A stretch of DNA of 64,000 nt from a virus. Position numbers and translations under genes: made by a program. This document shows positions 1-40,358 of this stretch, piece after piece. Positions within the stretch are counted from its first letter, which is position 1. Each line of letters starts with the position of its first letter. A model generated the notes under the pieces. It saw only the letters and a list, made by a program, of their open reading frames with translations. It ran no database searches and was not told the origin of the DNA. The stretch spans positions 40,189 to 104,188 of IMG/VR virus record IMGVR_UViG_3300001533_002564; one strand, given 5' to 3'.

Positions 1-1
1 A

Positions 2-37
2 ACATTTGCTGGTGGTGGTAGAAGTAGATTAGGATAA
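2..37 (+). CDS. 3' end of an upstream gene (partial, ...TFAGGGRSRLG*)
   Basis: Open frame from the window edge to TAA at 35-37, followed by a terminator hairpin. Confidence 0.5.
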   Translation, partial: TFAGGGRSRLG

Positions 38-58
38 TAAAAATAATATTAAAATATA

Positions 59-90
59 AAAAAACCGAAAATTAATTTTCGGTTTTTTTT
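59..90 (+). terminator. Rho-independent terminator
   Basis: aaaaccgaaaat..attttcggtttt inverted repeat followed by a T-tract. Confidence 0.75.
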
Positions 91-119
91 GTAACATATA
101 GTTTAATTAGTCGTATAAT
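88..119 (+). promoter_or_regulatory. ECF-sigma-like promoter TTTGTAACATAT-N-CGTATAAT
   Basis: Same two boxes with identical 21-nt GTAAC-to-CGTA offset recur at 34631-34662. Confidence 0.55.
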
Positions 120-136
120 AATAAAAATGATTAATT

Positions 137-550
137 ATGATACATAGAACATTTGAAGGTTTTAAGTTAACAAGAATTTATCTTGGTGGTTCTAAGAAAA
201 AAGAAAAAGATATATTTTCAACTGTCCAAGATGTTGAAAATGATTATCTTGCTTGTGATTGGTTAGAATTTAGAAGAATTATTGTAAAATATTGGGACGA
301 TATATTACATGTAATACATTCATGGGAAATTATATTAAAATTAATTACATTATTTTTATTGATATCATCAATATTATTATTTAAATATCAACATACTTCC
401 TTGATATTGTTTAGTATTTCAATAATCTTTTTTTCTATTTATTCTTATATAAAACAAAGAAGAATTCATATATTAAAAATGTATGGTTTTACATTATCAA
501 TAACTAATGATAAAATAAAAGAATTATTTGGTTTTGATTCATTAGTTTAA
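137..550 (+). CDS. Hypothetical membrane protein (2 predicted TM helices)
   Basis: 137 aa ORF with two hydrophobic stretches. Confidence 0.65.
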   Translation: MIHRTFEGFKLTRIYLGGSKKKEKDIFSTVQDVENDYLACDWLEFRRIIVKYWDDILHVIHSWEIILKLITLFLLISSILLFKYQHTSLILFSISIIFFSIYSYIKQRRIHILKMYGFTLSITNDKIKELFGFDSLV

Positions 551-572
551 GTATTTATATTAAAATCATATT

Positions 573-1058
573 ATGGATTACGATGAAAAAAATTTAAAGC
601 TAATTTATGTATTAAAAATTGGTTATAATGCAAAAGATGAAGGATTATATGAATTTATTTTTTCATTAGACCCAGAAAATATTGAAGTTGAAGATTGGTG
701 CTGGGATTTAAGTCCTGCGTGTGACAATGTGTTACCACCAACTGAAAATTATATTAATGGTATTTTTAATTTAAAAACAAGTTCATTTGATTTATTCTGT
801 TTGCATGAAGCTGTTGATAGAGAATATATGCATGGTTATCATACAATTCATGCATTAGCTTATGAAATTGAGAAAGAAGATGATAGTCCAGCACCTTTTA
901 GTGATTATGAAAGTATGTTCGAAAACAATAATGATGATATTCCATTATTAGTTTTTCATTATGGTATGACGCTTGAGAAAGTTAAGAATCTATTAATTTC
1001 AAGAAAGATGATTTTAAAAAACAATAGTTTTGTTGAAACTTCATCAATTGAATTATAA
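573..1058 (+). CDS. Hypothetical acidic phage protein upstream of terminase
   Basis: 161 aa ORF preceded by GTATTTAT motif at 551. Confidence 0.75.
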   Translation: MDYDEKNLKLIYVLKIGYNAKDEGLYEFIFSLDPENIEVEDWCWDLSPACDNVLPPTENYINGIFNLKTSSFDLFCLHEAVDREYMHGYHTIHALAYEIEKEDDSPAPFSDYESMFENNNDDIPLLVFHYGMTLEKVKNLLISRKMILKNNSFVETSSIEL

Positions 1059-1200
1059 TTACTAATCTTATTATATAAAAAATTTAAATATTCAATAATT
1101 AAGTTCATCTTGCCGTTCAGAAGAAGGAAATCGAAACACGATATATTAAAATATATGTCGTGTTTTGCTATTTATAGTATTTATTTATAAATATTTATAA

Positions 1201-3621
1201 ATGACTGACGAACTTGATATTAATTTAGATTCTTCTGAAAAAAATGATGTTAGTTTAAATCTTAATTTAAATGAACAATCTAAAAGTGATGATTCTAATT
1301 TTCCAGAACACATTCCTTTAATACCTATTGATACACAAAGACAACAAGAAAAGGATGATGCAAGAAAATTAGCTAAAAAATTAAAAAAACAAGGAAAGAT
1401 TCAACCAATTATCATCACAAAAACTCGTGGTGTTAAAAAGGTTAGTGAATTAAATTTTACTGAACAAGAAGATGAAATTCTTCGTTGTGCAATGAATCCA
1501 ATTTATTTCATTGAAACATATTTAACAATTTTTGACCAAACACAAGGTGTTTCTGGTACAATTGTACCATTTAAATTATTTGACTTTCAAAAAGATTTAA
1601 TTAAATCATATCAAAACCATCGATTTGTTGTTGCTAATAAATATCGTCAGGCTGGTGTTAGTACAACAACATGTGCATATATTGCTTGGTATATAATGTT
1701 TAATCGAAATAGACAAGTTGCAATTGTTGCTGATAAATTAGAAACAGCCACTGGTGAATTAATGAGTGATGTTGTTGATTTTATTGATAGTTGTCCTGCG
1801 TGGCTTAGACCTAAAACTGGTAGAAATACTGAAAAGAATTTAAAAGATACTCAAAAACTTAAAATATATGATAATGATTCAAAATTAGGTGCATTCGCAT
1901 CTAAAAGTTTACGTGGTTATACACCAACATTATTATTTTGGGATGAAACTGCATGGGCAGAAAAAGGAAATGAATTTTGGACAGCAGCTTTACCATCATT
2001 AGTTACTGGTGGTCGTGCAATAATGGTTAGTACGCCTTCAGGACTTGATGCTGTTTTCTACAAAACATTTGATGGTGCAAGAAAAAATGAAAATAATTTC
2101 CATGCAGTTGAACTTTGGTGGTATAATGACCCAAGATATAATAAAGACTTGGTTTGGTTAAAAAATAAAGGTAAGAAAAATGAAATTACATTAGAAGATA
2201 ATGGTAGGTCTCATGAACAAAGAAAACAATTAGTTGAAGATGGTTGGGAAGCAAGTAACGCTTGGTTTGATATACAAGTGCGTAATGCTAATGGTGATAT
2301 GCGTAAAGTTGCACAAGAGTTATTGTGTGTTTATGGTAATGCATCATTAACTATTAGAAATAAAAAAACTGGTGAAATTGGAAAAATTAGTATTGAAAAT
2401 TTATATAAAAAATTAAAAGAGCAAAACAATTCTTCTGAGTATTTATATAAAAGTAAATTTATGAATAAAATAAAATTATTAAATAAGATATTATCGATTA
2501 ATATTGAAAAATATAGAATAAAAGGTGGGTTATCAATGTTTAATAAAGATTTTCCAAATTTAATTAATGTAGTTAATGAATATACTAAAGACATGCAAAT
2601 ATGTTCCATGAATAAAACATTATATGCAAAATTATTATTTTTAAAAAAATATTATTGTAATATTAACAATATCACAATAAATGATAAAATAATGGTTTTT
2701 GATAGAACCATAGGAGATTTTATTGAAAAATCAGATAACTCAGCAAAAAAATATTGGGATAATATAAATCAAACTATAAAAAACACCAATAAATTTTATA
2801 CTAAAGAAGAAACAATTGAACTCTTAAAAAATGATTATAAAAATTATTTAGGAAAATCAGGTAATAGAAAATTAATTTCCAAAGATATTAATTTATATTG
2901 TAGTGTTTATCATCACACCAAACACATGGATAATTTAAATAAAAATTTAAATAAATTTTCATATAGATTATTAATTTTAATTAATAATGTTAATATTTAT
3001 TGTGAAAAACACAATAAATTAAAACATTGGAAGTTCAATGCAGATAATGAATTGGTTATCGGGTGTGCACAATGTGAGCCTAAATATCCATCAAAAAATT
3101 GGTTTAAATTAAAATTTGGTGATGATTGGAGAAAGCATTATGAATTTAGAAAAAATAAGGTTAAATTAAATAAAACAAATAGTTTAGAATGGCATATTAA
3201 TAAATATGGTGATGTAGGCATTGAAAAATATGAAAAATATGTTTTAAAAAAAATGAAGACATTAACTAAATTAAAAGCAAATCGATATAGTAAAATTTCT
3301 CAAGAATTATTTTGGGAGTTATATGATTCAATTCCAGATAAAGAAGACACATATTTCCATAATTTAAATCATGAATATGTTATCCGAATACCAAAGAAAT
3401 ATAATCACGAAAATATAATAATGATGATAGATTTTAAACATAAAAATAAAATTATTGAATATAATGGAAATTATTGGCATAATAAAGAAAAGAATAATAT
3501 TAGATATTCAATTTTAAGAAAGATGGGTTATCAAATACTAATTATTACATCTGACGATTATAATCGAAATAAAAAACCTAAAGAAATTATCAATAAATGT
3601 CTTAAATTTTTAACATGTTAA
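1201..3621 (+). CDS. terL: Terminase large subunit N-part (ATPase) + split-intein N-fragment + in-frame Vsr-like endonuclease
   Basis: T4 gp17-like motifs (NPIYFIETY, L(F)DFQKDL, KYRQAGVST, Walker B LFWDETAW, VSTPSG); intein starts at CVYG (2326). Confidence 0.9.
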   Translation: MTDELDINLDSSEKNDVSLNLNLNEQSKSDDSNFPEHIPLIPIDTQRQQEKDDARKLAKKLKKQGKIQPIIITKTRGVKKVSELNFTEQEDEILRCAMNPIYFIETYLTIFDQTQGVSGTIVPFKLFDFQKDLIKSYQNHRFVVANKYRQAGVSTTTCAYIAWYIMFNRNRQVAIVADKLETATGELMSDVVDFIDSCPAWLRPKTGRNTEKNLKDTQKLKIYDNDSKLGAFASKSLRGYTPTLLFWDETAWAEKGNEFWTAALPSLVTGGRAIMVSTPSGLDAVFYKTFDGARKNENNFHAVELWWYNDPRYNKDLVWLKNKGKKNEITLEDNGRSHEQRKQLVEDGWEASNAWFDIQVRNANGDMRKVAQELLCVYGNASLTIRNKKTGEIGKISIENLYKKLKEQNNSSEYLYKSKFMNKIKLLNKILSINIEKYRIKGGLSMFNKDFPNLINVVNEYTKDMQICSMNKTLYAKLLFLKKYYCNINNITINDKIMVFDRTIGDFIEKSDNSAKKYWDNINQTIKNTNKFYTKEETIELLKNDYKNYLGKSGNRKLISKDINLYCSVYHHTKHMDNLNKNLNKFSYRLLILINNVNIYCEKHNKLKHWKFNADNELVIGCAQCEPKYPSKNWFKLKFGDDWRKHYEFRKNKVKLNKTNSLEWHINKYGDVGIEKYEKYVLKKMKTLTKLKANRYSKISQELFWELYDSIPDKEDTYFHNLNHEYVIRIPKKYNHENIIMMIDFKHKNKIIEYNGNYWHNKEKNNIRYSILRKMGYQILIITSDDYNRNKKPKEIINKCLKFLTC
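2326..2424 (+). mobile_element. Atypical split intein, short N-fragment (~30-35 aa, CVYGNASLTIRNKKTGEIGKISIENLYKKL)
   Basis: Intein block A starting with Cys after the extein AQELL; resembles AceL-TerL IntN (CVYG...IEDLYK.L); end position approximate. Confidence 0.8.
2461..3621 (+). mobile_element. Vsr-like (PD-(D/E)XK) homing endonuclease, 386 aa, with own ATG and late promoter
   Basis: ATG at 2461 preceded by GTATTTATATAAA at 2439; C-terminal SKISQELF...IDFKHKNKIIEYNGNYWH...GYQILIIT nuclease motif; K/N-rich composition unlike the terminase. Confidence 0.75.
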
Positions 3622-3938
3622 TAAATACCGATTTTGAAATATTAAATTCGTCAGGTGAGTTCGTTGATTTTGCAGGTATTAGTAAAACAAAAAAAGATAT
3701 CGCATATAAGATTACTCTTGAAAATGATGATACAATTATTGTTAGTGAAGACCATGTATTTATTGCAGGTAATGTTAATGTTTTTGTTAAATCTATTGTA
3801 CCTTACGTATCATATTTAACTACAACTGATGGTGATTTTTTTGTTAAATCAATTGAGATTGTTGATGGGTGTGATTTTTATGATGTGATTGATACTGAAA
3901 ATGCTGAATATTTTGCAAATAATATATTAAATCATAAT
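3615..3938 (+). mobile_element. Atypical split intein, long C-fragment (108 aa)
   Basis: Block B (VSEDH), block F (FYDV) and block G (NHN) with Cys+1 at 3939. Confidence 0.85.
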
Positions 3939-4916
3939 TGTTCTTTCCTTGGTTCAGGTGATAACTTTATTGCTAAAGAATATCTTAAAAGAATTCAAGA
4001 TAATGAAATTTTACCACCAATACGTCAAGAATATGTTGATAATAATATGTGGATTTGGGAAGAACCTGTTGTTGGAGAGAATTATATAATGGCAATGGAT
4101 GCTTCACCGGGTCATGGAGAAGATTTTTCAACATTAAATATGTTAAAAACTGTTGAAATTATTGAAGAAAAAGTTATTAATAAAAATGGTAAAATAAAAA
4201 AAGTAAAAATTAAACGACATAAAGTAGAACAGGTCGCTGAATATTATGGTAAAATAAGTCCACAATTACTTGCAGAAATTGCATATCAATATGGTAAAAG
4301 ATATAATAATGCATATGCTGTTATTGATATTACTGGTGGTCATGGTGTCCATACTGTTGAAAAGTTGCTTGAAATTGGTTATGATAATGTGCATCATGCT
4401 GAAATAACACATAAACCTACTAGAGATAGATTACAAGGTTATATCAAAAAAGGTCAAAAAACTATGTCTGATGGTGCTATATCGGCTGTTGATTTAATTC
4501 CCGGGTTTTACATCGGTAATAATCGTCCATCAATTTTACTTGAGATGCAAAGAGCAATTCATTTAGAAGATGTTATTATTAGGTCAAGTAGATTATTATC
4601 TGAATTAAAAACATTTATTACTGTCCCCGGAAATCGTGTAGCTGATCATAAACGTACATTTCATGATGATAGTATAATGGGTTTGGCAATTGGTTTATTT
4701 GTATTAAATTTTGATATGGCTAAATTCAAACAAAATAGAGGTATTAATGAAAAAATGATTAAAGGCATTCTTACCTTAAATGATATTGATGAAATAGGGA
4801 AAAATATAAAAAATTTAAAGAAACCAATGTTTGATAGAGATGAAGCAAATCCTCTAAATCCGTATGGTGCAAACTCATGGTTATTTAAAGAAATTAAAGA
4901 AACAAATAAAAGATAA
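3615..4916 (+). CDS. terL: Terminase large subunit C-part (split-intein C-fragment + RNase H-like nuclease domain)
   Basis: IntC ends YDV...YFANNILNHN followed by CSFLGSG; nuclease motifs YIMAMDASPG.GEDFST and HDDSIMGLAI. Confidence 0.9.
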   Translation: MLINTDFEILNSSGEFVDFAGISKTKKDIAYKITLENDDTIIVSEDHVFIAGNVNVFVKSIVPYVSYLTTTDGDFFVKSIEIVDGCDFYDVIDTENAEYFANNILNHNCSFLGSGDNFIAKEYLKRIQDNEILPPIRQEYVDNNMWIWEEPVVGENYIMAMDASPGHGEDFSTLNMLKTVEIIEEKVINKNGKIKKVKIKRHKVEQVAEYYGKISPQLLAEIAYQYGKRYNNAYAVIDITGGHGVHTVEKLLEIGYDNVHHAEITHKPTRDRLQGYIKKGQKTMSDGAISAVDLIPGFYIGNNRPSILLEMQRAIHLEDVIIRSSRLLSELKTFITVPGNRVADHKRTFHDDSIMGLAIGLFVLNFDMAKFKQNRGINEKMIKGILTLNDIDEIGKNIKNLKKPMFDRDEANPLNPYGANSWLFKEIKETNKR

Positions 4917-4987
4917 TTTGTATTTATATTTAACTGACTTTTCCAAAATATTAAAGTATTTATAAAAAACTATAAAAAATTATAAAA

Positions 4988-6973
4988 ATGGCTGCCGAAA
5001 AAGAAAATAAAGGAACAATATACCAACAATTAAATAAGATGTTAAATCTTGATGGTTTTGGTCATCAAGAAGCATCACCAATTGCACCTGTAGCAAGTCC
5101 TGATAAATCAAAGATTGTTATTAAAGGGAATAGTCCTGAAGAAATACATAGAAAAGGATTAGAATTAGAACAAAAACGTGAACTTCAAAGTAAATTTTTC
5201 CGTACAACAGATAGGGGATTTCAAAAAGCACTTCAATATGAAGCAGCAAGACTTCCAGCATATATTGATTATGAAGGTATGGAGTATTATCCAATAATTA
5301 GTAGTGCATTGGATTTATTTATGGAAGAAGCAACTAGTATTGGTTTGAACGGTAAAATGATGAATATTTATTGCAATAAAGAAAGAATAAAACTATTATT
5401 AGAAGAATTCTTTTATGATATTGTAAATGTTAATGTTAATTTACCTTTCTGGGTAAGAAATGTTTGTAAATATGGTGATAATTTTGTTTTATTATATGGT
5501 GAACGTAAAAAAGGTATTACTCACGTAAAACAGTTGGTTAATTACGAAATTGAACGATTTGAAAGAATTCAAGACGGTAAACCAATGGTTAAGTTTAAAG
5601 AAAGAATGACTGGTGACGAATTTAATGTATTTGAAATTGCTCATTTTAGACTATTAGGTGATGATAAATATTTACCCTATGGTTCATCATTATTGAATAA
5701 GGTGCGTAGAGTATTTCGTCAATTAGTAATGGCTGAAGATGCTATGCTTACTTATCGTATTATTCGTGCAGGTGAGAAAAAAGTATTTAAAATTGATGTT
5801 GGAAATATTGATGAAGACGATATTGAAGATTACATCTATAAAGTTGCAACAACTTTTAAGAAAAAAGCACAAGTACAGCCAAATGATGGTCAAATTGATT
5901 ATCGTTTTAATATATTAGGTAATGATGAAGATTACTTTTTGCCTGTAAGAAATGCCAATACCGAAACAGGTATTGAAACGCTTCCGGGTGCTTCGAATCT
6001 TGACCAAATACACGATATTGAATATCTTAGAGATAATTTATTTATTGGTCTTGGTATCCCTAAACCATTTTTAAGTTTTCAAGATGCCACTGGTGGTGGA
6101 AAAAATATGGCACAATACGATATTAGATTTGCAAAAAAAATTAATCGTATTCAACAAGCAATGATTCAGGAACTTAATAAAATGGCGATGGTTCATCTTT
6201 ATTTATTAGGTTATAGTGGTGAAGATTTAAGTAGTTTTTCAATAACATTAACAAATCCTAGTACACAACAAGAATTATTGAAATCAGAATTACTTCGTGA
6301 TAAAGCACAAACATATACTGAATTAACTCGTGGTGAAGGAGGTATTGCAGCAATGTCACATACAACAGCAAAACGTATGATTTTCAATATGAGCGATAGA
6401 GAAATTGTTGATGATTTGAAACAACAAAAAATGGAAAAAGTTGTTATGCAGGAATTACAAGATTCTCCAGTTACAATTAAGAAATCTGGTTTATTTACTG
6501 ATATTGACAAGAGATTTGGTGAACCTATTGAAGATATGCCACTTACTGGTGATACTCAAGGTGGAATGCCACCAGAAGAAGGTGGTGAAGAAGGTGAAAT
6601 GCCACCATTAGGTGGTGGTGCTCCTCCTGCTCCTGTAGGTGGTGAAGAAGGTGAAATGCCACCATTAGGTGGTGGTGCTCCTGTTGGTAGTGGTGCTCCA
6701 CCTATGATGGAAAATATGAGCGAAGATGAATACATTAAACAAGTAGAGAAATTAGTTTATGGTAGTCCACAAGAACCTGAAAAAGATAAACAAGTTAAAG
6801 AAAAAGAAATAATTCAAGAAAATAATAATATTAATGATAAATTAAATAAAGGTGCTGAAAATATGATTAATGAGATTGATATTTTATTAAAATCAACTGA
6901 AAGCATTAATAAAACAGAAAAAATAAACGAAACTCAAGATATTGATATTGAAAATATTGACTTAGAAGAATAA
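4988..6973 (+). CDS. Portal protein (T4 gp20-like)
   Basis: YGSS.L, LVMAEDAMLTYRIIRA.EKKVFKIDVGN, EDYFLP, IETLPG motifs; follows terminase. Confidence 0.93.
   Translation: MAAEKENKGTIYQQLNKMLNLDGFGHQEASPIAPVASPDKSKIVIKGNSPEEIHRKGLELEQKRELQSKFFRTTDRGFQKALQYEAARLPAYIDYEGMEYYPIISSALDLFMEEATSIGLNGKMMNIYCNKERIKLLLEEFFYDIVNVNVNLPFWVRNVCKYGDNFVLLYGERKKGITHVKQLVNYEIERFERIQDGKPMVKFKERMTGDEFNVFEIAHFRLLGDDKYLPYGSSLLNKVRRVFRQLVMAEDAMLTYRIIRAGEKKVFKIDVGNIDEDDIEDYIYKVATTFKKKAQVQPNDGQIDYRFNILGNDEDYFLPVRNANTETGIETLPGASNLDQIHDIEYLRDNLFIGLGIPKPFLSFQDATGGGKNMAQYDIRFAKKINRIQQAMIQELNKMAMVHLYLLGYSGEDLSSFSITLTNPSTQQELLKSELLRDKAQTYTELTRGEGGIAAMSHTTAKRMIFNMSDREIVDDLKQQKMEKVVMQELQDSPVTIKKSGLFTDIDKRFGEPIEDMPLTGDTQGGMPPEEGGEEGEMPPLGGGAPPAPVGGEEGEMPPLGGGAPVGSGAPPMMENMSEDEYIKQVEKLVYGSPQEPEKDKQVKEKEIIQENNNINDKLNKGAENMINEIDILLKSTESINKTEKINETQDIDIENIDLEE
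6580..6682 (+). repeat. 46 bp exact direct repeat (6580-6625, 6637-6682) encoding GGEEGEMPPLGGGAP twice in the portal C-terminal tail
   Basis: Read directly from the sequence. Confidence 0.9.
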
Positions 6974-7053
6974 TTCAAGTATTTATTAATAAATTACATG
7001 AAATAAATATTTGTAATTAATAATAGTATTTATATTAAATCAAATTATATAAT

Positions 7054-7833
7054 ATGAAAAACATCAACATAGGAATTGCTAATATAATAATTTCTAATAA
7101 ATTAAATGAATCATATCTAAATGATAAATTAATTGAAGAATCAAAAAAAATCGCATTTGATTTTTTTGATGTCATAAAAAAATCACCTGTTCTTCAATTA
7201 GAATTTAAAGTGTTTAATAATATTGAAAGTAAACACATAGATAATGATATTTTCGCTAAAGAATATATTGATAATAATATTAAATTATTTGAAGTTTATA
7301 CTATTGATGAAATTATTAAGGAACGTCAAAAATTAAATAAATTCATTAATGAAGATATTCTAAATGAAGATGATGAAAAGGTTCAATTATATAATGCAAT
7401 TAATAATCTAATTGATGAATCATTAAAAACTAATGATGATGTTGATGTTGATAAAATTCATGAATCATTTACATTCGTTTTTAATTATATTAAAACTCCA
7501 AAGAAAGCATTACTTGAAAATGTTGATGTCGAAGAAATAAATGAAGATGTTATTGAAATTGCTGTTAGTAAATTTAACGAAAAATATGAAAGTCTTGATG
7601 AAGGTGATAAAGAATTATTAAAAACACTAATTAAAGCAAGTACTAAGGAAAAAAAATCATTACTTGAAACTTATAAGAAAGACACACTCAATATTTTAGA
7701 AGGAATTGATAAAGCTAATATTCAAGACAATATTCAGAAAGCAATTGAGAAAATAAAAGAAATGGTTTATAATCAAAAAAATGTTGATGATAATATTATT
7801 GGACTCCATGATTTGAAGAAGGAATTATTATAA
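7054..7833 (+). CDS. Hypothetical head-module protein (helical, late)
   Basis: 259 aa; late motifs at 6979 and 7026; lies between portal and protease. Confidence 0.7.
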   Translation: MKNINIGIANIIISNKLNESYLNDKLIEESKKIAFDFFDVIKKSPVLQLEFKVFNNIESKHIDNDIFAKEYIDNNIKLFEVYTIDEIIKERQKLNKFINEDILNEDDEKVQLYNAINNLIDESLKTNDDVDVDKIHESFTFVFNYIKTPKKALLENVDVEEINEDVIEIAVSKFNEKYESLDEGDKELLKTLIKASTKEKKSLLETYKKDTLNILEGIDKANIQDNIQKAIEKIKEMVYNQKNVDDNIIGLHDLKKELL

Positions 7834-7851
7834 ATTAATAAACGTTTTAAT

Positions 7852-7885
7852 AAAAAAGGTATGTATTATATTACATACCTTTTTT
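7852..7885. terminator. Bidirectional terminator between convergent genes
   Basis: aaaaaaggtatgta-ttatat-tacatacctttttt. Confidence 0.8.
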
Positions 7886-7887
7886 AT

Positions 7888-8727
7888 TTAACCAAGAGTA
7901 CCAAAAAATTTATCGAAATTTTTTGCTCCTTCTTCTGTTATATTAAGTTGTTTATAACCAAATCTATCATATAATAATTTAAATATTTTATATACATAGT
8001 TAATGCCTTCAAGCTCATAGTTTGGTTCATGTCTTTTTGCAGCATTTATCCAAATGGTATATGATGATGATGGTTCATTTAATAAATACGGTCCACGACT
8101 GTATCCAAATAACGTACAACTTGCTAAATCATCACATTTTTTTGAAATCTCATCCATATATACACACTGTGCTTTAATCATAATTTCAGGATTATCGATA
8201 ATGTTTTGAAAAATTATTATTCTATTTTCTAATCCTTCAGAATTGTTTTGAATGAATGATTTTTTTGATGGAATTTCGTCTGGTTTATATGTGTAATCAA
8301 TCATACCCTTTGTAATTGCTTTTATATCACTACCATTCATTCCTTTAAATTTGTTATCAATAATAACATCATAAATTGTTGGATATGTAAATTGACTAAT
8401 TCCAGATGCGCTACTAGGAAATGGAGCATAATTCCATACTTTATATCCTGATTCAATATATGCTTGTGCTGCTATAATATTTGCGTCAACATTATATAAT
8501 GCAGCATACTTATTATACCAATTAATTATTGCTTTAGCAAGTTCATCGTTGGTTTCAATACCACCATTAATATCTGGATTTGAAGTCCAATATCTATCTG
8601 GTGATATTGGTGTTGGAGTAAAAGGTAAAACATAATCATTTTTTCCTTTAAGATTTGAATTACCTTTCCCTTTACATTTTTCTTTAATATGTTCTTCACC
8701 TAATGTTGTTAATCTTTTATATGGCAT
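7888..8727 (-). CDS. Lytic transglycosylase (SLT domain), probably virion-associated
   Basis: IIAAQAYIESGY and ASGISQF SLT motifs. Confidence 0.8.
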   Translation of the reverse strand: MPYKRLTTLGEEHIKEKCKGKGNSNLKGKNDYVLPFTPTPISPDRYWTSNPDINGGIETNDELAKAIINWYNKYAALYNVDANIIAAQAYIESGYKVWNYAPFPSSASGISQFTYPTIYDVIIDNKFKGMNGSDIKAITKGMIDYTYKPDEIPSKKSFIQNNSEGLENRIIIFQNIIDNPEIMIKAQCVYMDEISKKCDDLASCTLFGYSRGPYLLNEPSSSYTIWINAAKRHEPNYELEGINYVYKIFKLLYDRFGYKQLNITEEGAKNFDKFFGTLG

Positions 8728-37601: not shown

Positions 37602-40358
37602 ATGGCAGATTTCGTATTCACCTCTCCGGGTGTAAAATTTAAAGAACGTGACCTTACTTTTGTAACACGTAATGTGGGTATAACAACATTAGGTCTAGTT
37701 GGTGAAACATTGAAGGGTCCTGCATTTGAACCTGTTTTCATTCAAGACCAAGGACAATTTTCAGATAAATTTGGAACGCAAAGCACAAAAAGATTTCAGA
37801 ATAAAACATTACAATATCAATTACCTTATATTGCAAATGCATATTTAGGTGAAGCACAACAACTTTGGGTAACCAGAGTTCTAGGACTTAGTGGTTATCA
37901 GGCAGGAACTGCTTGGAACATTACTTTAGATGCTGGTGTTGATACTTCTACTAGTGGTGTTACTAATACAATTACAAATACAGGTATTGCGTTTACAGAT
38001 AATACATATTTAGGTGTACCATTAACAGACACAGATGCAACTGGTTCATTAGAATCTGGTTATACAAAAAATGGAAGTACTTTTACTCAGGTTGTTCATG
38101 AATTTACTGCAACAACATATAATGGTACTACAGGTGATGGTGAAGTTACAGATAAAGAAACTACTTATACAGCATCATCATATGTTGAATATGAAAATAT
38201 GGTTCTTGCTACAATTAGAAGTAGAGCTGATTCAAAAACACCAATTGATAGTGCTCCTGTTACGACATTCATAACAGATAGTCTTGAAATAACAGCTAAC
38301 ACTACTTCTGGTGCAATGAATCCAACGGGTGATTTATTTAGTAATTTTACTTTACTTGCAAAAGATACTGGTGGAACAACTATTGGAACATATAAGGCAT
38401 CATTAAATCCAAATGATAGTAATTATTTACCAAATGTAATTGGTAATGAACCAAAAGATAAAAATACTGCTATTTGGGTACAAGCAATTTATCCTGACTT
38501 AATAAAAAAACTTGATGAAGATGGTATTGCATATGCAATCAATACTAAAATGATTACTGGTTCTACTGATGTATTTACTGATTATCAAATTGGATTTCAA
38601 ACACCTGAAACACCTTGGGTTGTTTCACAATTAAAAGGTAATGGTGTTGAAAGATTGTTTAAATTCATTAGTATATCTGATGGAGATAGTGCTAATCAAG
38701 AAATTAAAATTACAATTGGTAATATTGACTCATATACTGGTGAATTTGATGTTGCTATTCGTAATTTTTATGATACTGATGCAAATCCTATTACATTAGA
38801 AACATATACTAAGTGTAGTATGCTTAAAAGTGCTTCAAATTATGTTGGTCAGCGTATTGGTACAAGTGATGGTGAATTTACTCTTAAAAGTGATTATGTG
38901 ATGCTTGAAATGGCAGAAGACATTTCATTAGATGTATATCCAGCAGGTTTTGAAGGTTATATGTTTAATAATTATGCTAGTTCAGCTACAGGTGATGGTA
39001 CTACAACAGGTATTGCACCAAAAATATTCTATAAAACCGAATATGAAGATACAGATAAAGTTTCTAAAACATATTTAGGTATTTCTGAACTTGCACATAC
39101 TAATGATGGTATTAATCAAAACATGTTTAACTTTAATAATTGGTATAATGGTCAAGATTCAGATGATTTTAGTAAATCTAAAGGTTTTCATATGGATTCT
39201 GGAGCAACTAGTATATTAATTGATGGTAATATTACTGGTGAATTTGAAGTGGGTGAAGGAACATTTGGAGCAGTAAGTGATATTAATACAGATAATCCTT
39301 ATTTTGATAAAAAGAAAAGAAAATTTACTTTAGTTCCTGCTGGTGGTTTTGATGGATGGGATGTTCATAGAAAAGAACGTTCATATGGTGATATGTTTGT
39401 GCAGGGTGGTAGACAGAGTGGTCATCCGGGTGAGCCATTAGTGATTCCAACTAATGATTTTCAAGCATGGGAAATGGCAGTTGATACTTTTGCTAATCCT
39501 GAAAATATTACAATTAACCTTTTTGCAACTCCGGGTATTAATTGGGCATATCAAACTACATTAGTTCAGAACACAATTGATATGATTGAACAACAAAGAA
39601 CTGATACATTATATGTGATTGATTCACCTCAAGGTTCTGTTGAACCAACTGTTGCTGATGGTGGTAAGGCTGATGTTAATGCAGCAGATGATATTGTCGG
39701 ATTACTTGGTGATACTGAAATCGATAGTAGTTATGCTTGTACTTATTATCCTTGGATTCAAATGAGAGACGTTCAAAATAATGTTAATGTTTATATTCCA
39801 CCTACTGGTGAAGTAGTAAAAGCAATGGCATTCACTGATAATATTTCATTCCCTTGGTTTGCACCTGCTGGTTTAAATCGTGGTGTAACTAATGCAAGAA
39901 AATCACAATATAAATTATCGTTAGAAGCACGTGATATTCTTTATGAAGCAAGAATTAACCCAATGGCAGATTTTGCAGATAGTGGTACTGCAATTTTCGG
40001 ACAGAAAACACTTCAAGTTAGAGAAAGTGCACTTGATAGAATTAATGTTCGTAGATTATTGCTTCAGATTAAAGTTCTTATTTCAAATATTGCAGTTAGA
40101 CTTTTATTTGAACAAAATGACCAAGCAACAATTGACCAATTCTTAAATAAAGCAAATCCTATTCTTGATAGTATTAAAAGAGAACGAGGCTTAACTGATT
40201 TTAGAATAACTATGGATAATACAAATAATACTCCAGAAACTAGAGATAGAAACGAATTATATGGAGAGATATTTTTAAAACCAACTAGAGCAGTTGAATT
40301 TATTGGAATTACGTTTACTATTACTCCTTCAGGAGCATCATTTGATGATGTATCATAA
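37602..40358 (+). CDS. Contractile tail sheath protein (gp18-like)
   Basis: FTSPGV..KERDL, PWFAPAGLNRG, FGQKTLQ..SALDRINVRRLL, KPTRAVEFI. Confidence 0.95.
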   Translation: MADFVFTSPGVKFKERDLTFVTRNVGITTLGLVGETLKGPAFEPVFIQDQGQFSDKFGTQSTKRFQNKTLQYQLPYIANAYLGEAQQLWVTRVLGLSGYQAGTAWNITLDAGVDTSTSGVTNTITNTGIAFTDNTYLGVPLTDTDATGSLESGYTKNGSTFTQVVHEFTATTYNGTTGDGEVTDKETTYTASSYVEYENMVLATIRSRADSKTPIDSAPVTTFITDSLEITANTTSGAMNPTGDLFSNFTLLAKDTGGTTIGTYKASLNPNDSNYLPNVIGNEPKDKNTAIWVQAIYPDLIKKLDEDGIAYAINTKMITGSTDVFTDYQIGFQTPETPWVVSQLKGNGVERLFKFISISDGDSANQEIKITIGNIDSYTGEFDVAIRNFYDTDANPITLETYTKCSMLKSASNYVGQRIGTSDGEFTLKSDYVMLEMAEDISLDVYPAGFEGYMFNNYASSATGDGTTTGIAPKIFYKTEYEDTDKVSKTYLGISELAHTNDGINQNMFNFNNWYNGQDSDDFSKSKGFHMDSGATSILIDGNITGEFEVGEGTFGAVSDINTDNPYFDKKKRKFTLVPAGGFDGWDVHRKERSYGDMFVQGGRQSGHPGEPLVIPTNDFQAWEMAVDTFANPENITINLFATPGINWAYQTTLVQNTIDMIEQQRTDTLYVIDSPQGSVEPTVADGGKADVNAADDIVGLLGDTEIDSSYACTYYPWIQMRDVQNNVNVYIPPTGEVVKAMAFTDNISFPWFAPAGLNRGVTNARKSQYKLSLEARDILYEARINPMADFADSGTAIFGQKTLQVRESALDRINVRRLLLQIKVLISNIAVRLLFEQNDQATIDQFLNKANPILDSIKRERGLTDFRITMDNTNNTPETRDRNELYGEIFLKPTRAVEFIGITFTITPSGASFDDVS

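Follow-up and report, generated by a model that had tools for sequence, protein, structure and literature searches.

The 64,000-nt stretch of viral DNA analysed here (the window; positions 40,189 to 104,188 of IMG/VR record IMGVR_UViG_3300001533_002564) contains a gene for the large terminase subunit (TerL) that is interrupted by a split intein and a homing endonuclease (HEN). We propose that this is a fractured terminase of known type, in which an EDxHD HEN cassette lies after intein block A and the stop codon that follows the N-terminal intein fragment (IntN) has been lost, a reading to which we assign a probability of about 0.72. The first open reading frame, ORF1 (1201-3621, 806 aa), begins with the ATPase half of TerL and continues through a short IntN and an open tail of 15 codons into a HEN of 386 aa. 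ORF2 (3615-4916, 433 aa), in the -1 frame, encodes the 108-aa C-terminal intein fragment (IntC) and the TerL nuclease half. All three parts (the enzyme N-half with IntN, the HEN, and IntC with the enzyme C-half) lie on one strand at one locus. Rather than a lesion of one genome, the read-through between IntN and the HEN is a state of a mobile element that is heritable and has persisted for long.

No stop interrupts the frame that runs from 2326 to 3621, and none separates IntN from the HEN ATG. A preliminary description of the window had claimed as much, whilst drawing attention to read support at 2420-2460 and to a possible indel at 3605-3621; at both places independent Logan contigs show no difference. 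A Logan contig of 5224 nt (depth ~21), present in two runs that are possibly the source sample, is identical to the window over 2000-4200, with 0 differences and 0 gaps, and a third run from the same study spans the ORF1/ORF2 overlap (3505-3657), again with no difference. A relative from another study aligns without gaps at ~92% identity over 2284-3463. The open junction also occurs in the related loci L002/L003, L004, L005/L006, L013, L014, and L090, and the same layout is present on phage contigs of 320-350 kb. Across JGI, ENA, and Logan data, read-through proteins form 13 clusters at 90% identity, the junction of the window being shared by all 13, compared with 20 clusters that stop after ...EYL.

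The difference between the two states is small. Stop-bearing forms have TAA or TAG directly after a TTA codon, where read-through forms have TAT or TCT, and only ~5 codons separate the former stop position from the HEN ATG. The initial estimate of ~30 aa for IntN describes its core correctly, but in the stop-bearing relatives IntN is 39-41 aa long and ends ...EQNNSCEYL, leaving those ~5 codons as the truly extra ones. The linker residues vary among the read-through clusters and the length is constant at five codons. In the AlphaFold2 (AF2) model the linker is predicted to be flexible, with a predicted local distance difference test score below 50 at residues 34-44. Persistence across many lineages, which as relatives are not independent of one another, suggests constraint on the open linker.

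Both splice junctions are fixed by intein-less alleles. TerL is uninterrupted in most of the 80 related viral loci that formed our comparison set, and in these the exteins abut in frame exactly at AQELL-CSFLGS, the very join that splicing had been predicted to restore. Cys1 (Cys376 of ORF1, TGT at 2326-2328) directly follows AQELL, and IntC ends in NHN (last codon 3936-3938), directly before the Cys+1 codon (3939-3941). These splicing residues are kept, as is the block-B His (SEDH), and those in IntC are invariant in alignment A4. The IntN core of 30 aa contains block A only, and the 108-aa IntC contains blocks B, F, and G, which is the atypical type of split; in published members of the class, IntN measures 25-37 aa and IntC ~104-122 aa with all motifs but N1 (PMC2677866, PMC11766414).

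IntC matches CatC (6dsl_B) over residues 6-110, its whole length, in a phmmer search (E = 0.0037, a weak-to-moderate score), and also matches the gp41-1 intein. The AF2 model of the window's IntN-HEN protein folds IntN into a beta-hairpin and a helix, which can be superposed on CatN (6dsl_A) with a root-mean-square deviation of 1.7 over 30 residues and 37% identity, likewise a weak-to-moderate score. Searched alone against PDB sequences, IntN returned chance-level matches only. Contiguous mini-inteins of 143-164 aa, without a HEN, occupy the same TerL site in L024/L025 and in at least 19 protein clusters (L024:5884-6312; P0072-P0090). IntN resembles the first 30 residues of the L024 intein (46% identity across 35 residues, the end of the extein among them) and IntC its last 105 residues. 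For the L024 intein, AF2 gives a confident model only of the IntC-equivalent part, the first 53 residues being poor; the model's Foldseek matches at E ≤ 0.001 are inteins only, with Cat further down the list. Together, the CatC and CatN matches and the block layout bear out the first assignment: judged by its sequence, this TerL gene is fractured, and its intein is of class 1, atypically split, and belongs with AceL/GOS/Cat-TerL. The ratio of non-synonymous to synonymous substitution rates (dN/dS) has values of 0.24 in IntN with its linker and 0.10 in IntC, and substitution patterns indicate purifying selection on the exteins and on both intein fragments.

The protein encoded between the two intein halves had been recognised as a Vsr-like HEN, and both sequence and predicted fold agree. 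Over its last 60 residues the protein matches the I-Bth0305I catalytic domain (3r3p; E = 0.005 with the single sequence, 0.002 with a profile), and 3r3p is the top Foldseek match of the AF2 model (probability 1.0, target-normalised template modelling score 0.72), with Vsr lower in the list. Matches to Pfam DUF559 and MTES_1575 fall below threshold. The HEN is conserved along its whole length in nine relatives (alignment A2), and its dN/dS against L002 is 0.146. A hidden Markov model search of 1.84 billion cluster representatives returned 1133 HEN relatives at E ≤ 0.001, mostly free-standing proteins of 300-400 aa.

The active site of the window's copy is incomplete. Profile alignment places the equivalent of I-Bth0305I D222 at a conserved Asp five residues past a WH motif. 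This Asp is present in 16 of 16 other distinct full-length relatives and in the wider family; only the window has Asn (Asn345 in HEN numbering). The A at 3493 is backed by the 21x Logan contig, and a 92%-identical relative (run X6) has G, giving Asp. Of the remaining catalytic residues, His340 is present and Asp324 is probably the equivalent of D196. Since D222N prevents cleavage by I-Bth0305I and was the inactive variant used in that study (PMC3239194), the window's HEN is, by homology, probably nuclease-dead or impaired.

The HEN also keeps its own start codon, as stated in the preliminary description: Met421 of ORF1, with its ATG at nt 2461. Every read-through form whose HEN is intact retains this Met, which is lost in L004, where the HEN is truncated. 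Given its retention in the intact forms, internal initiation is probably still in use, with free HEN probably also being produced in this way. At the 5' end of the cassette lies a ~28-nt motif, GAACAAAAYAATTCTTSTGAGTATTTAT (2416-2445), conserved at third codon positions and far better conserved than the preceding IntN core (alignment A1). It is missing from L085 and L094. The parts of the locus are collected in Table 1.

Table 1. Parts of the interrupted terminase gene, in window coordinates, and the evidence that delimits each.
Feature	Coordinates	Strand	Evidence
TerL N-extein, ATPase half, 375 aa, ends AQELL	1201..2325	+	Pfam Terminase_6N; PHROG terminase large subunit; intein-less relatives run straight into the C-extein here
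IntN core, 30 aa, Cys1, block A only	2326..2415	+	L024 mini-intein alignment; AF2 model on CatN 6dsl_A
IntN tail and linker KEQNNSSEYLYKSKF, 5' end of HEN cassette, no stop	2416..2460	+	Nucleotide motif in alignment A1; TAA/TAG in sister loci
EDxHD/Vsr-like HEN, 386 aa, in frame with IntN, own ATG kept	2461..3621	+	3r3p by sequence and fold; alignment A2
AAT (Asn) at the catalytic Asp site (I-Bth0305I D222)	3493..3495	+	Profile alignment; relatives have Asp
ATGTTAA, HEN stop overlapping IntC start; ORF2 in -1 frame	3615..3621	+	Overlap also in relatives
IntC, 108 aa, blocks B, F, and G, ends HN	3615..3938	+	phmmer matches to CatC 6dsl_B and gp41-1; alignment A4
TerL C-extein, nuclease half, 325 aa, starts CSFLGS	3939..4916	+	tblastn matches to phage terminases; contiguous with N-extein in intein-less relatives

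Inspection of a maximum-likelihood tree of 20 HEN sequences revealed that read-through forms make up eight of the nine rows of one starred clade, the exception being L085, and that a separate starred subclade of three read-through rows lies inside a mostly stop-bearing clade. At least two changes between the read-through and stop states are forced on this tree. The two states share the overlap between the HEN stop and the IntC start: among 13 distinct loci, 9 have the 4-nt offset ATGnTAA/TGA, whether or not they read through, and with the overlaps of 1 or 7 nt in three further loci the two genes overlap in 12 of 13. L085 has GTT at the start position.

The element also appears to be mobile. 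By windowed identity, the intein-HEN element of the window is 91-95% identical to that of L002 and the flanking exteins are 79-85% identical; synonymous divergence (dS) between the two is 0.24-0.42 in the element vs 0.89 in the C-extein. Because identity in the element exceeds that in the exteins, these values suggest that the read-through cassette was swapped as a whole between TerL alleles fairly recently. In two other read-through loci the HEN is broken, being truncated after 96 residues in L004 (5648-5935) and frameshifted near residue 217 in L093 (624-1912); both look like stages of nuclease decay with the intein halves intact. The cis mini-inteins P0079, P0072, and P0076 contain short stretches like both ends of the HEN cassette (a weak match, 8/13 residues), which may be footprints of HEN loss. 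A natural series is thus found at one site, comprising the empty site, the cis mini-intein, the split intein with a free HEN, the IntN-HEN fusion, and the fusion with a decayed HEN.

Fusions of a nuclease to one intein half recur in other lineages. In P0125 (residues 330-470) and P0147 (185-275), Terminase_6N is followed by a short IntN that leads straight into the HEN zinc-finger region. As no internal Met is present, the nuclease in these two proteins would be made only within the TerL N-precursor, and such distant fusions without a Met imply that IntN-HEN fusions are expressed elsewhere. The mirror arrangement, with the nuclease first, followed by IntC and Terminase_6C, occurs in P0116, P0149, and P0176. 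In Vibrio phage Va1 (MK387337, L164 2692-4977), gene Va1_136 joins an EDxHD HEN, IntC, and the TerL C-half in one coding sequence, annotated merely as 'putative terminase', and IntN ends in a stop; this HEN is 32% identical to that of the window. Gene 17B of Aeromonas phage PX29 (NC_023688, L162 2805-4604) is annotated as a GIY-YIG endonuclease plus C-intein, and Yersinia phage MHG19 has the canonical three ORFs. The layout had been thought unusual to this phage, a view that does not survive its clade-wide occurrence, its recurrence in other lineages, and the nuclease-intein fusion in the PX29 annotation. The accompanying idea of an intermediate between split and HEN-containing inteins fares better, fitting both the series at one site and the mirror HEN-IntC fusions elsewhere.

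We propose the following route to mature TerL. IntN (~30 aa) would dock into IntC and complete the HINT fold, after which Cys376 and Cys+1 would perform the standard class-1 steps and Asn108 of IntC would cyclise. Trans-splicing would join ORF1 residues 1-375 to ORF2 residues 109-433, giving a TerL of 700 aa. The released IntN-HEN protein (431 aa) would stay non-covalently bound to IntC. The HEN domain should not block assembly of the intein, as the C-terminus of IntN and the N-terminus of IntC are neighbours in the contiguous relatives, and artificially split PI-PfuI that keeps its endonuclease domain is reported to work in trans (PMC7090010). Ribosomes reading ORF1 would finish on the ATGTTAA overlap, which may, speculatively, couple the output of the two TerL halves.

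A bolder version of this scheme, possible in our view at less than even odds, is that the IntN-HEN fusion has itself been selected as a 'split bifunctional intein'. The nuclease would then be carried within the terminase N-precursor, ribosome flow would feed the start of the C-half, and later in-frame loss of the HEN would heal the gene to a cis mini-intein, of which P0079 may carry a trace.

Three points weigh against the reading proposed here. Read-through has been lost at least once inside its clade, in L085, where the junction is rearranged with overlapping stop and start. Stop forms, too, conserve the nucleotides of the tail motif, which therefore gives no sign of selection on the fusion protein. 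Lastly, shuffling indicates that one 15-nt linker would be open by chance 42-62% of the time, so that a single case could be chance. The second and third points, together with retention of the HEN ATG in every read-through form whose HEN is intact, would also suit the explanation that the open frame is a silent accident, in which the fusion protein is hardly made, because the HEN has its own transcript or ribosomes drop off, and the locus behaves as a canonical three-product fractured gene. We consider this unlikely. No terminator-like site lies between IntN and the HEN and RNAalifold found no conserved RNA structure 5' of the HEN ATG (a hairpin shared by the window and L002 is absent from the other loci), and nothing in the sequence would halt the ribosome. 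Moreover, read-through persists over a deep clade and recurs, and other lineages fuse IntN to the HEN without an internal Met.

Nor does the sequence offer the HEN a convincing promoter. The promoter placed at 2439 in the preliminary description proved to be a chance-level match in AT-rich DNA: sigma-70-like sites number 30 against 36.6 expected, the late-promoter octamer TATAAATA is not enriched (36 observed vs 32 expected), and its exact copy at 2440-2447 is on the minus strand. In an Rfam search of 1-8000, neither a group I intron nor any other RNA family was detected. Upstream of the terminase gene, the plus strand has an exact TATAAATA at 1186-1193, preceded by a terminator-like hairpin (1132-1167) and lying 8 nt from the TerL ATG; transcription of TerL may start from this copy as a late promoter.

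It is highly improbable that the terminase is decaying and non-functional in a defective or dead-end genome. The HEN has lost a catalytic Asp, and the HENs of L004 and L093 are truncated or frameshifted, as this explanation would predict. However, the exteins and both intein fragments appear to be under purifying selection with all splicing residues kept, the same layout occurs on the 320-350 kb phage contigs, and TerL is present in one copy in the whole record. Decay confined to the HEN is the expected late stage of the homing cycle and leaves TerL unaffected.

Also highly improbable, and slightly less credible than terminase decay, is a -1 ribosomal slip on the T-run before ATGTTAA, which would give one polyprotein with a cis-splicing intein containing the EDxHD domain. 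The frame of ORF2 is indeed -1, and the window and several relatives have TTTTTA 4 nt ahead of the ATG. However, the T-run is missing in L013, L009, and L089, and it is not a canonical X XXY YYZ site. No form with the HEN fused on both sides was found among the close relatives, where the longest cis inteins measure 143-164 aa, or among the best 150 of the 1133 HEN-family representatives, none of which is long enough for a full fusion. The conserved ATG and the stop-start overlap suit reinitiation better. Finally, removal of the stop or a shift of frame by an assembly or sequencing error, to which AT-rich, low-complexity sequence might be prone, has a negligible chance given the identical ~21x Logan assembly, the gapless relative from another study, and the many independent contigs that share the junction.

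The fractured terminase, with its stop-less IntN, sits in a 104-kb virus record with a G+C content of ~25%. With completeness put at 32% by CheckV, the record represents a fragment of a jumbo phage (a giant uncultured phage). The N-half of the enzyme is a T4-type TerL ATPase domain by Pfam (Terminase_6N) and PHROG, and a portal gene lies just 3' of the locus. In many relatives the TerL N-extein is interrupted a second time near residues 254-278, by ~1.3 kb of DNA that matches LAGLIDADG_3 (PF14528) and is absent from the window. This insertion occurs in L004 (3833-5155), L024 (4186-5526), and P0003, P0010, P0012, and P0073-P0090, and is presumably a second, bifunctional intein.

Natural split inteins apparently can bear a whole endonuclease on the short fragment, after block A. 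To our knowledge, no natural intein with a HEN after block A has been described. One insertion site in one phage group displays nearly every stage of the homing cycle, from the empty site to the decayed nuclease, and the gene-breaking model of Dassa et al. thereby becomes testable on a real series of sequences. For protein engineering, the locus and its relatives supply many natural pairs of a 30-40-aa IntN and a 108-aa IntC, with a hint from sequence that IntN may tolerate a large C-terminal cargo.

The intein class, the HEN family, and the fractured layout have all been published previously, the read-through form is common in metagenomes, and the mirror form is annotated in GenBank; no description of a stop-less IntN-HEN junction was found in the literature searched. 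The closest inteins are AceL-TerL, GOS-TerL, and Cat (PDB 6DSL; PMC11766414), which share the TerL host gene, the short IntN with block A only, an IntC of ~104-122 aa, Cys1, and Cys+1. Sequence identity to these is low and, unlike in them, the window's IntN runs on into a 386-aa endonuclease without a stop.

The fractured genes of Dassa et al. 2009 (PMC2677866), amongst them a 'Terminase' locus with an IntC of 122 aa, likewise have three co-oriented coding parts, a Vsr-like HEN, and a HEN 3' end that overlaps the IntC start. In those loci a stop and a non-coding spacer of 27-51 nt precede a free-standing HEN, whereas the window has neither stop nor spacer and its first two parts form one ORF. 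The model proposed there includes in-frame insertion of a HEN (step IIa); no description of a half-fusion was found in it (PMC2677866).

I-Bth0305I, the EDxHD prototype (PMC3239194, PDB 3R3P), shares with the window's HEN a C-terminal Vsr-like fold, equivalents of N208 and H213 and probably of D196, and a long N-terminal DNA-binding region. It differs in being encoded by an intron in recA, and the window has Asn at D222. The Va1 and PX29 loci resemble that of the window in coming from T4-like phages with an atypically split TerL intein and a HEN fused in frame to one intein half. In both, however, the HEN is on IntC and IntN is terminated by a stop, and the PX29 nuclease is of the GIY-YIG type. 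Bifunctional cis-inteins such as PI-SceI and PI-PfuI also combine intein and HEN in one polypeptide, as the window does on the N side at least. In the window the chain is broken before IntC by the stop and frame change at 3615-3621, and the HEN, which is EDxHD rather than LAGLIDADG or HNH, lies after block A and not between blocks B and F.

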